Source of the DNA: Escherichia coli
GTDB lineage: Bacteria; Pseudomonadota; Gammaproteobacteria; Enterobacterales; Enterobacteriaceae
Length of the DNA stretch: 64,000 bases
Direction: 5' to 3' (one strand)
Assembly (NCBI RefSeq): GCF_030013595.1
Contig: NZ_CP122768.1
In this document: one piece after another, positions 40,965 through 48,218 of the stretch
Layout of the letters: every line of letters begins with the position of its first letter
Position numbering within the stretch: the first letter of the stretch is position 1
The notes under the pieces: generated by a model
What the model saw: the letters and a program-made list of their open reading frames with translations, nothing else
Told to the model about the DNA's origin: nothing
Databases searched by the model: none
Position numbers and translations under genes: made by a program

Positions 40965-41864
40965 TTATCGCCCCGTAGTGGATATCAGAAAATCAATCAG
41001 GGCCTTCACTCTTTTCGTTTTACCCGCGTTTTTGGGGTAATAGAGATACACTGGCGGGTAGGTTTTCCAGTAGCTCTCCATCACCGGAATAAAGCGCTCC
41101 CTGTCCGGCTGTAACTGCCAGACAGGCTCAAACAAGCGCCCAATTCCCAGCCCGTTACGGATCCCGTCTGCCATAACGTCAATATCGTTGCTGATTAACT
41201 GCCCCGGCATCTCAACGGTCAACTGCTCACCGCGATCGTTCAGGAGCAGCGGAAGGATGCGGTTGTTGGTGATAAAACGGTAACCAATCAGCTGGTGATG
41301 ACAGAGATCTGCCGGCACTTCAGGCGTTCCATGTCGGGAGAGATACGCTGAGGATGCATATAATCCTTCACGAAACGGTTTCATTAACGGTCGGGCCACC
41401 ACCCCTCCCTCAAGAATATCGCCAAAACGGATCCCCAGATCAAAACGCTCTTTGATGATATTCACGGTACCGTCGTAGACCGAAATTTCTAACTGTATAC
41501 CCGGATATTGCTGACAGAATTCTGCCATCGCAGGCTTAAGAATTAACAGGTAGGCAAAACGCGAGAGCGTAATTCGCACCATCCCAGAGGGCTCCTGATG
41601 CTGGTCGCGAATGCTTTCAAGCGAGTTTTCCAGCGACTCCACCGCCGCAGCGGTCTGTTCCAGCAATAATTGACCGGTTTCCGTCAGCTCTATACGGCGG
41701 GTCGTACGCACAAAAAGCGGATGGCCGATATACTCTTCCAGCAGCTTTAGTGCATTGCTGACGGAGGGAGGCGTAATTTCCAGTTTCCTTGCGGCTGCCG
41801 AAATATTGCCCTCCCGCGCAATGCTCTGGAAGATGCGAATCTGGTTATAAAGAGCGTTATTCAT
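40965..41864 (-). CDS. LysR-family transcriptional regulator
   Basis: 299-aa ORF with N-terminal LysR HTH (IRIFQSIAREGNISAAARKLEITPPSVSNALKLLEEYIGHPLF); divergent from the downstream oxidoreductase genes. Confidence 0.8.
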   Translation of the reverse strand: MNNALYNQIRIFQSIAREGNISAAARKLEITPPSVSNALKLLEEYIGHPLFVRTTRRIELTETGQLLLEQTAAAVESLENSLESIRDQHQEPSGMVRITLSRFAYLLILKPAMAEFCQQYPGIQLEISVYDGTVNIIKERFDLGIRFGDILEGGVVARPLMKPFREGLYASSAYLSRHGTPEVPADLCHHQLIGYRFITNNRILPLLLNDRGEQLTVEMPGQLISNDIDVMADGIRNGLGIGRLFEPVWQLQPDRERFIPVMESYWKTYPPVYLYYPKNAGKTKRVKALIDFLISTTGR

Positions 41865-42000
41865 AATGTTTTCCTAAAGCAATTCTCGCCTGATTATTAA
41901 GTACAGTCTAAAAATGCTTAAGTCAATGACCCTCTAATCTTCCTGAAATACGCCTCTTATACTTTAGTCTCTTTCTACTACGACCTGAGTTCAGGAGACT

Positions 42001-42312
42001 ATGATGCGAATTTTATGTCTGGATATCCCTGCCCCTGGAGCATCGCTGGAGAAATATGCTCCGCACCTCAACGCTGAAGCGCTGCACGCCTGGGGATTGT
42101 ATAAATCAGGCTTCATCCGCGACATCTACTTCCGTCAGGACAGACCTGGCGTCGCTATTTTTCTTGAATGTGACTCTGTCGATGAAGCGATGAACGTTAT
42201 GGCCGAATTCCCGTTGGCAAAAGCAGGCTTACTAAGCTTCGAGTGTATACCGCTTGGCTCCTTTATTAACTGGGAAAATCTCTTCGCCGATGAATTTAAA
42301 AATAAAGAGTGA
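42001..42312 (+). CDS. Muconolactone delta-isomerase-like small protein (103 aa)
   Basis: About 100-aa protein with MLI-family-like pattern (…GLYKSG…DSVDEAMNVMAEFPLAKAGLLSFECIPL); assignment by resemblance only. Confidence 0.45.
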   Translation: MMRILCLDIPAPGASLEKYAPHLNAEALHAWGLYKSGFIRDIYFRQDRPGVAIFLECDSVDEAMNVMAEFPLAKAGLLSFECIPLGSFINWENLFADEFKNKE

Positions 42313-42320
42313 GGACCGAT

Positions 42321-43010
42321 ATGAAACCTGCATATAAACCAGTGCTATGTGTCGTTTCCAGCCATCCGATTAAAGGCGCATCCGGTGTACCAACCGGTTT
42401 TTTCCTGGCCGAGCTGACTCATCCGCTGAAAGTACTGGAAGATGCCGGAATAAAAACAACAATAGCCAGTATTCGCGGGGGGCAGCCACCGGTGGATGGA
42501 TTTGACCTCAGCGACCCTGTTAACGCCTGGTACTGGAACGAAACCGATTTTCAGCAGCGCCTGGCAACAACACCTGCGTTATCCGAGCTGAAAGGTGCCG
42601 ATTACAGCGCAGTTTTCTTTGCAGGTGGTCATGGGACCATGTGGGATTTCCGTGATAATCAGGATGCCCAGCGTATTATCCGCGAAGTGTATGAAAGTGA
42701 TGGGATTGTCTCAGCCGTCTGCCACGGGCCTGCGGCATTGGTTGACGCAAAACTCAGTAGCGGCGAATACCTGATAAAAGGGAAAAATGTGGCGGCCTTT
42801 ACCAACAAGGAAGAGGAAGAAGTTCACACAACAGATGTGGTTCCCTTCCTGCTTGAAACCGCACTTCGCGAGCATGGTGCGCTTTATCATGAAGCTCCAA
42901 ACTGGTCTGAAAACGTGGTTACCGACGATCGCCTTATCACGGGGCAGAATCCCGCTTCAGCACATGGGGTTGGTGTGGCGCTGTTAAATGCACTCCGCCG
43001 GACAGCTTAA
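42321..43010 (+). CDS. DJ-1/PfpI (class I glutamine amidotransferase-like) family protein
   Basis: Nucleophile-elbow motif SAVCHGPAAL typical of DJ-1/Hsp31-type proteins; ATG at 42321 with RBS GAGGA upstream. Confidence 0.65.
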   Translation: MKPAYKPVLCVVSSHPIKGASGVPTGFFLAELTHPLKVLEDAGIKTTIASIRGGQPPVDGFDLSDPVNAWYWNETDFQQRLATTPALSELKGADYSAVFFAGGHGTMWDFRDNQDAQRIIREVYESDGIVSAVCHGPAALVDAKLSSGEYLIKGKNVAAFTNKEEEEVHTTDVVPFLLETALREHGALYHEAPNWSENVVTDDRLITGQNPASAHGVGVALLNALRRTA

Positions 43011-46558: not shown

Positions 46559-46673
46559 CCCTTATTCACTTTTCCTCCTCTCGTCTTTGAGAGCGCCAGT
46601 AGCGGTCGGTTACGTTCTTACCAGCACCAGTTGATCGAACGTCTTAAACAGTAATGTCAGTAAAAAGATCATC

Positions 46674-47399
46674 GTGAAAAAGACTTTTATGCTTTTAATT
46701 TGCATGCTAATAAGCAGCCCTGTCTTTGCAACAAAACCGGACGCGCCGAATAAGCCGGAGATGAATATCTTCGAGCTCGGCATCAGACCCGATCGGGACA
46801 ACGACTTTGCAGACGTGGCCAGACAGACGATTTCCGCTTCGGTTGATCATGAAGCTGGTACACTGGCGATGTATGCCCTGAAACGCAGCGACAATTCAGG
46901 TCAGGCATTCATGTTCGAACTCTATGAAAATGAGCGTGCTTATCGCAAACATCTCAATGCCGCCCCATACAAAGCATTCGCTGCTCGTGCACCTGACATT
47001 ATTGACAGGAAGAAGAAAATTACCCTGGAGCCACAGTTTCTGGGCGACAAACACATCATACCGAATGAACGAACTATCAATAATCTGGTGATCGTCGAAG
47101 TAAAGCCTGAATTTCAGAGCGAATTTAGAAACATCGTCCTTCCTGAAATGGTCGAGTCGCTCAAAGTAGAGAAAGGCGTGTTAGCCATGTATGCCGGTAC
47201 AGATTCAGAGACTCCAAAACGATGGTATTTCTATGAGATTTACGCCAGTGAGGAGGATTATCAACTGCACCGACAAACGCTGCACTTCCTGGATTACCTC
47301 AGGCAAACGGCGCATATGAGCGCCAGGAAGGACGCAATCCCGGTAAAACCGGTATTTCTTCGTAACAAAGGCGGAATCAAACAGGAGCCGCAACGTTGA
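46674..47399 (+). CDS. Secreted protein with two ABM (antibiotic-biosynthesis-monooxygenase/Dabb) domains
   Basis: Signal peptide MKKTFMLLICMLISSPVFA; two repeats of an ABM-like core (…AMYALKR…FMFELYENERAYRKHL… and …AMYAGTD…YFYEIYASEEDYQLHRQT…). Confidence 0.55.
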   Translation: MKKTFMLLICMLISSPVFATKPDAPNKPEMNIFELGIRPDRDNDFADVARQTISASVDHEAGTLAMYALKRSDNSGQAFMFELYENERAYRKHLNAAPYKAFAARAPDIIDRKKKITLEPQFLGDKHIIPNERTINNLVIVEVKPEFQSEFRNIVLPEMVESLKVEKGVLAMYAGTDSETPKRWYFYEIYASEEDYQLHRQTLHFLDYLRQTAHMSARKDAIPVKPVFLRNKGGIKQEPQR

Positions 47400-47414
47400 C
47401 CAGTAAGGATTAAC

Positions 47415-48218
47415 ATGAAAAGCGTACTTGCAGCAGCGGCTATGTCGCTTGTTATTTCTGATTTTGCCAATGCTGAGGAAACAAGAGGTAAAGCTATGAT
47501 GAAAATAGAACCGTCAGCGATTTCGGAAGCTGATATTCGTTCCGTCTCACCGGCTCTCGCGCGCTTTGGTCGCGAAGCTATTACTGAAGATCTGTGGACA
47601 CGCGACGCCCTCTCACCGAGGGATCGTAGTGTGGTGACCGTCGCCATGCTGATTGCCCGCAACCAGCCTGCCGAGCTTAAGCACTATATTGACGTCGCTC
47701 TCGATAGCGGCGTGACGCCAGCGGAATTATCAGAAATCATTACCCATCTGGCGTTCTACTCAGGTTGGCCAAATGCAATGTCAGCCGTCAGCGTGACCAA
47801 AGCAGTATTTGAAACTCGTGGCGTCACGGCAGATGCACTTCCTGAAGCTTCTCCGGACCTGCTTCCTCTCAATCAGGAAGCAGAAAAGCAGCGTTCAGAG
47901 ACAGTGGAAAAAAATGTTGGCCCAATATCTCCAGGCCTGGTTAAATTCACTGCTGATCCACTCTTCCTGGATCTCTGGCAAAGACCCGCGCTGAAACCCC
48001 GCGACAGAAGCCTGATTACGGTCAGCGCCTTAATCGCATCCGGACAGAGCGCGCAGATTGGCTATCACCTCAATAGAGCAATGGATAATGGACTTTCTGT
48101 TGAGGAAGCTGGTGAGATCGTTACCCAGGCCGCCTTCTATGCTGGCTGGCCAAACGCATTTACCGCTGCTCCGGTTGTGGGAGAGGTGCTAAACAATCGA
48201 TCATCGAGTAAAAGGTAA
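47415..48218 (+). CDS. Secreted protein with two carboxymuconolactone decarboxylase (CMD/AhpD-like) domains
   Basis: Signal peptide MKSVLAAAAMSLVISDFANA; duplicated CMD-family motif (ITHLAFYSGWPNAMSA / VTQAAFYAGWPNAFTA). Confidence 0.6.
   Translation: MKSVLAAAAMSLVISDFANAEETRGKAMMKIEPSAISEADIRSVSPALARFGREAITEDLWTRDALSPRDRSVVTVAMLIARNQPAELKHYIDVALDSGVTPAELSEIITHLAFYSGWPNAMSAVSVTKAVFETRGVTADALPEASPDLLPLNQEAEKQRSETVEKNVGPISPGLVKFTADPLFLDLWQRPALKPRDRSLITVSALIASGQSAQIGYHLNRAMDNGLSVEEAGEIVTQAAFYAGWPNAFTAAPVVGEVLNNRSSSKR

Follow-up and report, generated by a model that had tools for sequence, protein, structure and literature searches.

A LysR-linked operon of quinone- and carbonyl-reductase-type enzymes in Escherichia coli, a partly decayed candidate for electrophile detoxification

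The regulons of MexT, a LysR-type regulator of Pseudomonas aeruginosa, and of MhqR/YodB in Bacillus subtilis contain quinone reductases, aldo-keto or zinc-dependent alcohol dehydrogenase (Zn-ADH) reductases and DJ-1-like proteins. A cluster of related content lies at positions 40965-48218 of a 64,000-nucleotide stretch of Escherichia coli DNA (contig NZ_CP122768.1 of RefSeq assembly GCF_030013595.1; this whole stretch is called the window below), where a gene for a LysR-type regulator is divergent from an operon headed by a small gene that we term g103. We consider there to be about an even chance that the cluster is an inducible operon detoxifying quinone-type or related thiol-reactive electrophiles, horizontally acquired and partly decayed in E. 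coli. Two described sets of enzymes bear on this reading: in E. coli the flavodoxin-like quinone reductase MdaB and the ABM 'quinol monooxygenase' YgiN have been proposed to form a quinone redox cycle (Adams and Jia 2005, J Biol Chem 280:8358, as cited in PMC8765430), and TftG converts chlorohydroxyhydroquinone to hydroxybenzoquinone, which is then reduced by a quinone reductase (PMC3975901).

An earlier note on this DNA had set the bounds of the cluster at 40965 and 48218, and a map of the open reading frames (ORFs) in 39000-50500 shows these to be exact, running from the LysR stop to the stop of the CMD gene. The same note counted nine co-oriented genes; there are eight loci, comprising seven intact genes and one amidohydrolase pseudogene, the latter appearing in the ORF map as fragments at 44119-44758. 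Its family calls were all borne out by Pfam, with HTH_1 and LysR_substrate, DJ-1_PfpI, two Aldo_ket_red, an Amidohydro_2 fragment, Flavodoxin_2, two ABM and two CMD matches in the window, both ABM domains lying in one protein and both CMD domains likewise in one protein; the call of g103 as muconolactone isomerase (MLI)-like stands at the level of fold or superfamily. The features, with lengths in amino acids (aa), are as follows.

40965..41864, minus strand: LysR-type transcriptional regulator, 299 aa (Pfam HTH_1 and LysR_substrate)
41893..41941, no strand: conserved operator-like block ATTATTAAGTACAGTCTAAAAATGCTTAAGTCAAT, two TTAAGT copies 21 bp apart, then CTAATCTT (Enterobacterales intergenic alignment)
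41958..41963, plus strand: candidate -10 hexamer TATACT of the operon (alignment)
41994-41998, plus strand: GGAGA Shine-Dalgarno sequence 3' of the candidate -10 (alignment)
42004..42312, plus strand: g103, MLI/YCII-fold protein of about 102 aa, operon gene 1 (the ORF has a second ATG at 42001)
42309..43010, plus strand: DJ-1/PfpI superfamily protein, Hsp31/Glx3 class (Pfam DJ-1_PfpI; RefSeq start at 42321)
43084..44031, plus strand: aldo-keto reductase 1 (AKR1), 315 aa (Pfam Aldo_ket_red, E 1.8e-55)
44134..44810, plus strand: pseudogene of a hydroxybenzoate-decarboxylase-like amidohydrolase_2, in three frames (tblastn with the intact Enterobacter mori orthologue)
44964..45536, plus strand: flavodoxin-like-fold NAD(P)H:quinone-reductase-type protein, 190 aa (Pfam Flavodoxin_2)
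45539..46558, plus strand: aldo-keto reductase 2 (AKR2), 339 aa (Pfam Aldo_ket_red, E 7.7e-69)
46572, no strand: scar of a 952-bp deletion, DUF1330 and second Flavodoxin_2 genes gone (blastn against Rahnella rivi)
46674..47399, plus strand: tandem-ABM protein with predicted N-terminal Sec-type signal peptide (GTG start; RefSeq start at a later ATG, about 46704)
47415..48218, plus strand: tandem-CMD protein with predicted signal peptide (ANA/EE cleavage), no cysteine (two Pfam CMD domains)

No Rfam family was matched within 40000-49300, and the repeats found at the cluster were short chance-level pairs; no att-like direct repeats flank it.

Among GTDB species representatives, a peptide-pattern scan yielded 80 g103 loci, their hosts being overwhelmingly plant- or soil-associated Proteobacteria. 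A LysR gene lay within 8 kb of g103 in 79 of these, and the divergence of LysR from the operon that the earlier note described recurred in 75 of the 80 species with the LysR start no more than 1.1 kb from the g103 homologue; the distance was less than 400 bp in 29 of the 75, and in the remaining 46 the two were separated by a single co-oriented gene of about 200 aa (WrbA-like in 45). At least 63 of the 80 loci also carried a flavoprotein of the quinone-reductase type (WrbA-like, KefF-like or Flavodoxin_2), co-oriented within 6 kb of g103. These counts define a conserved core consisting of LysR, a quinone-reductase-type flavoprotein and g103. To judge from the same loci, Hsp31-like DJ-1 proteins (53/80) and decarboxylase-like amidohydrolase_2 proteins (41/80) are the usual companions, and behind them comes a changing set of carbonyl reductases and cofactor-free proteins: ABM in 35, AKR2-like in 31, CMD in 29, an Ahr/YahK-like Zn-ADH (aldehyde reductase) in about 25, SDR in 11 and dienelactone-hydrolase-family proteins in nine. 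By this measure the system's conserved hallmark is its small first gene, g103, and not its reductases. The same gene order is found in Rahnella, Pantoea, Serratia, Pectobacterium, Raoultella, Klebsiella and on an Enterobacter mori plasmid, an arrangement that on comparison of these genomes is far beyond chance. The LysR pairing was not seen in the contexts of three more divergent g103 relatives and is therefore a property of the tight g103 subfamily. A related cluster in Archangium violaceum (locus L005, 2506-10482) contains LysR, two AKRs, DUF2255, two CMD genes, g103, Zn-ADH, tandem ABM and DUF1330, is bracketed by transposase and recombinase genes, and appears to be mobile in a myxobacterium.

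The g103 protein has no Pfam match even at E<=10, no NCBIfam match and nothing significant in PDB sequence searches; its homologues are 62-84% identical across Enterobacterales, Burkholderiales, Rhizobiales, Xanthomonadales and Myxococcota. The AlphaFold model (pLDDT 91.1) has the ferredoxin-like beta-alpha-beta-beta-alpha-beta topology expected of the MLI fold. In a profile search of 1.84 billion representatives, 1375 clusters matched the g103 profile at E<=1e-3, giving a family of at least 1375 clusters at 50% identity, and among 47 divergent relatives tied to the g103 alignment by hhalign with 100% probability, 23 match Pfam MIase and eight match YCII. Because of this fold and these relatives the MLI-like call is supported at the fold or superfamily level, the placement being made through fold comparison and transitive Pfam matches only. 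The MIase/MLI proteins (muconolactone isomerase, ClcF) are dimeric alpha+beta barrel enzymes, and the sequence of g103 itself misses the Pfam MIase model; TftG, a YCII-family protein, is also a dimeric alpha+beta barrel enzyme, and g103 misses the YCII model and has no chlorophenol pathway genes nearby. TftG is, by fold comparison, the closest functionally characterised relative of g103, and its sequence scored below threshold against the g103 profile (E 0.05-0.08). Many homologues in RefSeq and UniRef are labelled 'superoxide dismutase', a name that we set aside as a source label only, given that g103 resembles no Fe/Mn, Cu/Zn or Ni superoxide dismutase family or fold: it has no Pfam or NCBIfam match, and its fold is MLI/YCII-like. 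Membership of the beta-ketoadipate pathway was likewise rejected, its genes being absent and the scores sub-cutoff: neither the window cluster nor the ten-gene versions described below contain a ring-cleavage dioxygenase, cycloisomerase, enol-lactone hydrolase or CoA-transferase. A search for fusions among g103 relatives that might point to a partner (Rosetta-stone) gave nothing beyond tandem or exported forms and a single case that is probably an artefact of gene calling.

Versions of the cluster 88-92% identical in nucleotide sequence are present on an E. mori plasmid and in Rahnella rivi and Pantoea genomes. The ten-gene order is g103, DJ-1, AKR, a 344-aa amidohydrolase, Flavodoxin_2, AKR, DUF1330, a second Flavodoxin_2, tandem ABM and tandem CMD, all co-oriented, with the amidohydrolase intact in the E. 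mori and Rahnella versions. In blastn against the R. rivi locus (L008), window 44267-46572 aligned with 12634-14940 and window 46572-48221 with 15893-17542; a 952-bp deletion has removed from the window the exported-type DUF1330 gene and the second Flavodoxin_2 gene, both of which are present in L008 and in locus L003. Relative to Rahnella a further 354 bp are deleted inside the amidohydrolase (scar at 44267/44268), whose remnant occupies the frames 44134-44268, 44267-44707 and 44697-44807; there is a second frameshift besides the deletion. The E. mori orthologue aligned by tblastn as aa 1-45, 164-310 and 307-343 in three frames with aa 46-163 deleted, the Amidohydro_2 match spans model positions 128-253 only, and the metal-ligand motif LEEHY has become LEENY (His-to-Asn). 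Judging from these alignments, the E. coli cluster is a horizontally acquired, partly decayed copy of the ten-gene operon, to which it is about 91% identical in nucleotide sequence, an origin that adds to the account in the earlier note. The Klebsiella pneumoniae version consists of four genes, g103, Flavodoxin_2, AKR and CMD.

The intact amidohydrolase is nearest to the unannotated PDB entry 3nur and then to LigW and the 2,3-dihydroxybenzoate, gamma-resorcylate and salicylate decarboxylases (E 1e-47 to 1e-30). The E. mori and Rahnella proteins align with these hydroxybenzoate decarboxylases over their full length; they differ in that the closest structure is unannotated and that the window gene is a pseudogene. 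The genomic context is unlike that of the lig, gra and tsd clusters. A working hydroxybenzoate decarboxylase with its metal-binding E-x-H, His and Asp ligands was rejected for the window on the loss of aa 46-163, the three frames and the changed ligand motif.

For the remaining proteins the curated NCBIfam equivalog cutoffs were used as the threshold of membership (scores and cutoffs in bits), and no cluster gene attained one. The LysR protein (WP_001057776.1, identical in three other E. coli genomes) scored best with YafC, at 162.8 against 470; it has the N-terminal HTH_1 and C-terminal LysR_substrate domains of a LysR-type regulator and is divergent from its putative target operon. The DJ-1 protein carries Cys138-His139 in the motif AVCHGP and a Glu within AELTHP, and its nearest structures are 4p5p and 1u9c, then yeast Hsp31 (E 6e-29) and the Candida glyoxalase III Glx3. 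In length, sequence and Cys-His nucleophile motif it resembles the Hsp31/Glx3 DJ-1 proteins (glutathione-independent glyoxalase III), but its HchA profile score of 66.6 is far under the cutoff of 365. YdjG was the top profile for AKR1 (117.7 against 550), the nearest structure being IolS; AKR2 scored 124.6 with the same profile and is nearest to 7utf (aryl-alcohol-dehydrogenase-like), IolS and DepB. At these scores neither AKR qualifies as a YdjG-type methylglyoxal reductase. The flavoprotein is nearest to general stress protein 14, KefF, NQO1 and MdaB, and a quinone oxidoreductase ancillary to K+ efflux, of the KefF/KefG kind, was rejected on its KefF score (149.4 against 210) and the lack of a Kef channel gene in the cluster. 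The LsrG profile reached 56 bits among the cluster proteins (cutoff 135).

The tandem-ABM protein, named 'putative quinol monooxygenase' in RefSeq, is nearest to 3mcs and 3f44, both of unassigned function. The tandem-CMD protein is nearest to 4g9q (E 2e-73) and scored 115.3 with the PcaC profile TIGR02425 (cutoff 155.7); as a sub-cutoff tandem duplicate with a signal peptide it was not accepted as a PcaC 4-carboxymuconolactone decarboxylase. An AhpD-type alkylhydroperoxidase role is excluded because the protein has no cysteine and hence no CxxC. Accordingly, where the earlier note had guessed at an aromatic, quinone or reactive carbonyl/peroxide substrate, the first three options are kept and the peroxide option is weakened. 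Its statement that the combination matches no pathway that can be named agrees with the lack of equivalog matches, with nearest structures that are mostly unannotated structural-genomics entries, and with a full-text literature search aimed at the cluster that returned no study of it, only a Pseudomonas veronii proteogenomics paper on other matters; the RefSeq annotation consists of generic names only.

Hydrophobic N-termini with an AxA-type cleavage site were found in 9 of 10 tandem-ABM orthologues (where the site is of the VFA/T type), 17 of 32 tandem-CMD orthologues and 8 of 11 DUF1330 orthologues; signal-like N-termini occurred in none of 15 AKR2 and three of 53 DJ-1 orthologues. Because of this distribution a two-compartment layout is predicted, with the NAD(P)H-dependent enzymes in the cytoplasm and the cofactor-free ones (ABM, CMD and DUF1330) exported. 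The predicted export of the ABM and CMD proteins is a further addition to the earlier note. Among divergent metagenomic g103 relatives (P0124, P0126, P0203 and P0246) there are tandem duplicates and forms with N-terminal signal peptides, and the wider g103 family is therefore predicted to include exported forms.

The operator-like block at 41893-41941 is kept in 14 Enterobacterales LysR-g103 intergenic regions in which the flanking positions diverge, and the TATACT hexamer is invariant in this 14-locus alignment. LysR presumably binds at this block and controls the operon. A scan for promoters and terminators showed no enrichment over shuffled sequences and did not call the conserved -10, as may be expected of a generic scan because an activator-dependent promoter should have a weak -35.

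From the gene content and its conserved neighbourhoods we infer enzymatic roles, an inducer, a substrate class and a mode of regulation. LysR would bind the operator block upstream of the weak promoter and activate the operon when it senses the toxin or something formed from it. In the cytoplasm, two-electron reduction of quinones would fall to the flavodoxin-like NAD(P)H:quinone reductase, the two aldo-keto reductases would reduce carbonyl groups, and the Hsp31-class DJ-1 protein would remove alpha-oxoaldehydes or electrophile adducts. The highly constrained MLI/YCII-fold g103 may perform an acid/base isomerisation or tautomerisation of a quinol, quinone or lactone intermediate, and the exported, cofactor-free tandem-ABM and tandem-CMD proteins may act on the compound in the periplasm. 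Quinones and quinols are favoured because g103 constantly accompanies quinone-reductase-type flavoproteins, and because its fold relative TftG feeds hydroxybenzoquinone to a quinone reductase (PMC3975901). The conserved operator-like block and -10 hexamer, the constraint on the intact genes, the predicted two-compartment layout and the plant- or soil-associated hosts also count in favour of the detoxification reading. Candidate toxins would be quinones, polyphenols that oxidise to quinones, and reactive carbonyls of plant, fungal or soil origin.

Several observations weigh against this detoxification role. No step has a characterised orthologue, every NCBIfam match being far below the equivalog cutoff, and the enzyme families are broad, so that a reductase-rich cluster can serve many chemistries. 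A hydroxybenzoate-decarboxylase-like amidohydrolase, present at half of the g103 loci (41/80), is not obviously needed by a generic quinone-stress model, and the part played by an exported PcaC-like CMD protein is unexplained. Finally, three genes are lost from the E. coli copy, whose function may differ from that of its ancestor or be reduced.

A more far-reaching account, offered tentatively and with a probability well short of even, is that the LysR-g103 pair marks an undescribed, Proteobacteria-wide system. Here g103 would catalyse a tautomerase- or isomerase-type reaction not described before, acting on a toxin of the (hydroxy)quinol, quinone or lactone kind, together with the flavoprotein, DJ-1 protein and amidohydrolase in the cytoplasm; the exported ABM, CMD and DUF1330 proteins would pre-process this class of compound in the periplasm, making a two-compartment defence against one particular family of plant, fungal or soil phenolic toxins. 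If it were true that this module and the exported cofactor-free enzymes do new chemistry on a defined toxin class, the cluster would be of greater interest.

It is unlikely, in our judgement, that the ancestral operon was a dedicated route for one ortho-hydroxy aromatic acid or lactone (for example a dihydroxybenzoate or butenolide), committed by the amidohydrolase_2 decarboxylase, with the MLI-like and CMD proteins acting on lactone or enol intermediates, and that it is broken in E. coli with side activities left. MLI and PcaC of the beta-ketoadipate pathway both act on muconolactones, the intact amidohydrolase has LigW and the other three decarboxylases as its nearest characterised relatives, g103 with DJ-1 and amidohydrolase_2 is the commonest core outside Enterobacterales, and dienelactone-hydrolase-family genes recur (nine loci). 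However, the Enterobacterales clusters offer no transporter dedicated to such a route, besides lacking the four pathway enzymes named above; the genes 3' of g103 vary greatly from species to species, a pattern typical of stress regulons and not of fixed pathways; and the decarboxylase has proved dispensable in Klebsiella, Raoultella and E. coli while the other genes stay constrained.

It is likewise improbable that, instead of quinones, the main targets are alpha-dicarbonyls and reactive aldehydes, such as methylglyoxal, glyoxal and aromatic or lipid-derived aldehydes, with the DJ-1 protein as a glyoxalase III and the AKR, Zn-ADH and SDR proteins as aldehyde reductases. The Hsp31/Glx3 class of the DJ-1 protein with its Cys-His motif, the methylglyoxal reductase YdjG as top-scoring profile for both AKRs, and the recurrence of Ahr/YahK-like aldehyde reductases (about 25 of the 80 loci), SDRs and a molybdenum hydroxylase all accord with such a target, but the YdjG and HchA scores are far under their cutoffs. 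Moreover, the most constant partner of g103 after LysR is the quinone-reductase-type flavoprotein (at least 63/80), and neither the exported ABM and CMD proteins nor the decarboxylase has an obvious part in aldehyde detoxification.

Of 5426 complete E. coli genomes, 516 carry the cluster by megablast, 428 of them essentially at full length; the other 88 carriers have partial copies only, some with insertion sequence (IS) elements inserted. Among the full-length E. coli copies listed, all are at least 98.8% identical and share the same structure. For the intact genes the ratio of non-synonymous to synonymous change against Rahnella and E. mori (dN/dS) was 0.02-0.26, lowest for g103, and that within E. 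coli (pN/pS) was 0.13-0.38, small counts that are suggestive only. Over its 932 bp the pseudogene region has 13 differences, compared with 18 for 5958 coding sites, and so diverges about 4-5 times faster, again on small counts; the compared E. coli strains do not differ in their LysR, g103, DJ-1 and flavoprotein products. By these values purifying selection acts on the intact genes. A further reading, that horizontal transfer left E. coli with a non-functional cluster in decay whose ORFs are intact only through shortness of time, is very improbable: the pseudogene, the two deletions relative to the ten-gene form, the partial and IS-interrupted copies and the near-identity of the listed full copies (little time to diverge) would fit it, but the synonymous lean of the coding differences, the faster change in the pseudogene (both suggestive only) and the four invariant products speak against it.

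Of the approximately 46 coding differences that separate the window from two further E. coli copies (L088 and L089), 32 fall in the CMD gene (47415-48218), which suggests that this gene alone is a recombined allele. Broken pieces of genes for a related NAD(P)H oxidoreductase and a CMD protein are found on E. coli plasmids of about 70 kb, as at 4900-5375 of pE102651_74 (L094), and match the window at about 94% identity; the plasmid match was rejected as a functional copy, the one examined being a pseudogene fragment of a related cluster.

As the earlier note had proposed, the cluster is absent from K-12, where hipA directly joins the yneL remnant. The K-12-absent interval in the window is 27347-48677, with the cluster at its right-hand end; the left part holds an integrase fragment, a Lamassu defence system, an IS91 transposase and unassigned ORFs. 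In other E. coli carrier strains the cluster stands directly after hipA, and the left-hand material is therefore regarded as a separate insertion. This segment of about 13.6 kb between hipA and the LysR cluster (27347-40964), missing in those strains, includes the integrase fragment (28306-28947), the IS91-family transposase (38525-39757) and several ORFs with no family match (27462-28280, 28911-31310, 32504-33076 and 39712-40077). Its Lamassu-type anti-phage system (33892-38195, minus strand; GC content low, at 36-41%) consists of LmuB (775 aa, PADLOC E 7e-69), LmuC (36185-36940) and LmuA (36933-38195). At 26871/26872 the toxin gene hipA lacks 510 bp found in K-12 and in strain SC418, a deletion that is in frame because 510 is a multiple of 3, and HipA of this strain is probably inactive. 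Right of the cluster, an AraC-family C-terminal HTH remnant (48633-48887) is the equivalent of the K-12 yneL pseudogene, so that the cluster abuts an older gene wreck. Beyond it, at 49143-52424, lie genes for a fimbrial major subunit, a chaperone and the 5' part of an usher that are absent from K-12, where ydeT is truncated.

As an accessory trait of about 9% of complete E. coli genomes, the cluster could bear on how well its carriers survive quinones and aldehydes from the diet or from plants, or how they fare in environmental reservoirs; nothing evident ties it to virulence or to resistance against antibiotics. Of more general use as a lead is a highly conserved small protein family, misnamed 'superoxide dismutase' in many records, that is nearly always found with LysR and a quinone-reductase-type flavoprotein, and whose function could inform 'domain-only' families such as tandem ABM, tandem CMD, DUF1330 and the amidohydrolase_2 relatives of 3nur.

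Set beside the described systems, the cluster resembles MdaB-YgiN in encoding a flavodoxin-like NAD(P)H quinone reductase and an ABM-fold protein; it differs in that the ABM protein is a tandem form with a predicted signal peptide, the flavoprotein is KefF/YwrO-like and the pair lies inside a larger LysR-linked operon. Its combination of a regulator, mixed quinone and carbonyl reductases and a DJ-1-like protein is also that of the MexT and MhqR/YodB regulons, to which its LysR is presumably not orthologous, whereas its organisation as a single operon, its unique signature gene g103 and its predicted exported, cofactor-free enzymes set it apart. Notwithstanding these differences, the cluster is made of familiar superfamilies and fits a known type, the regulator-controlled electrophile detoxification operon.

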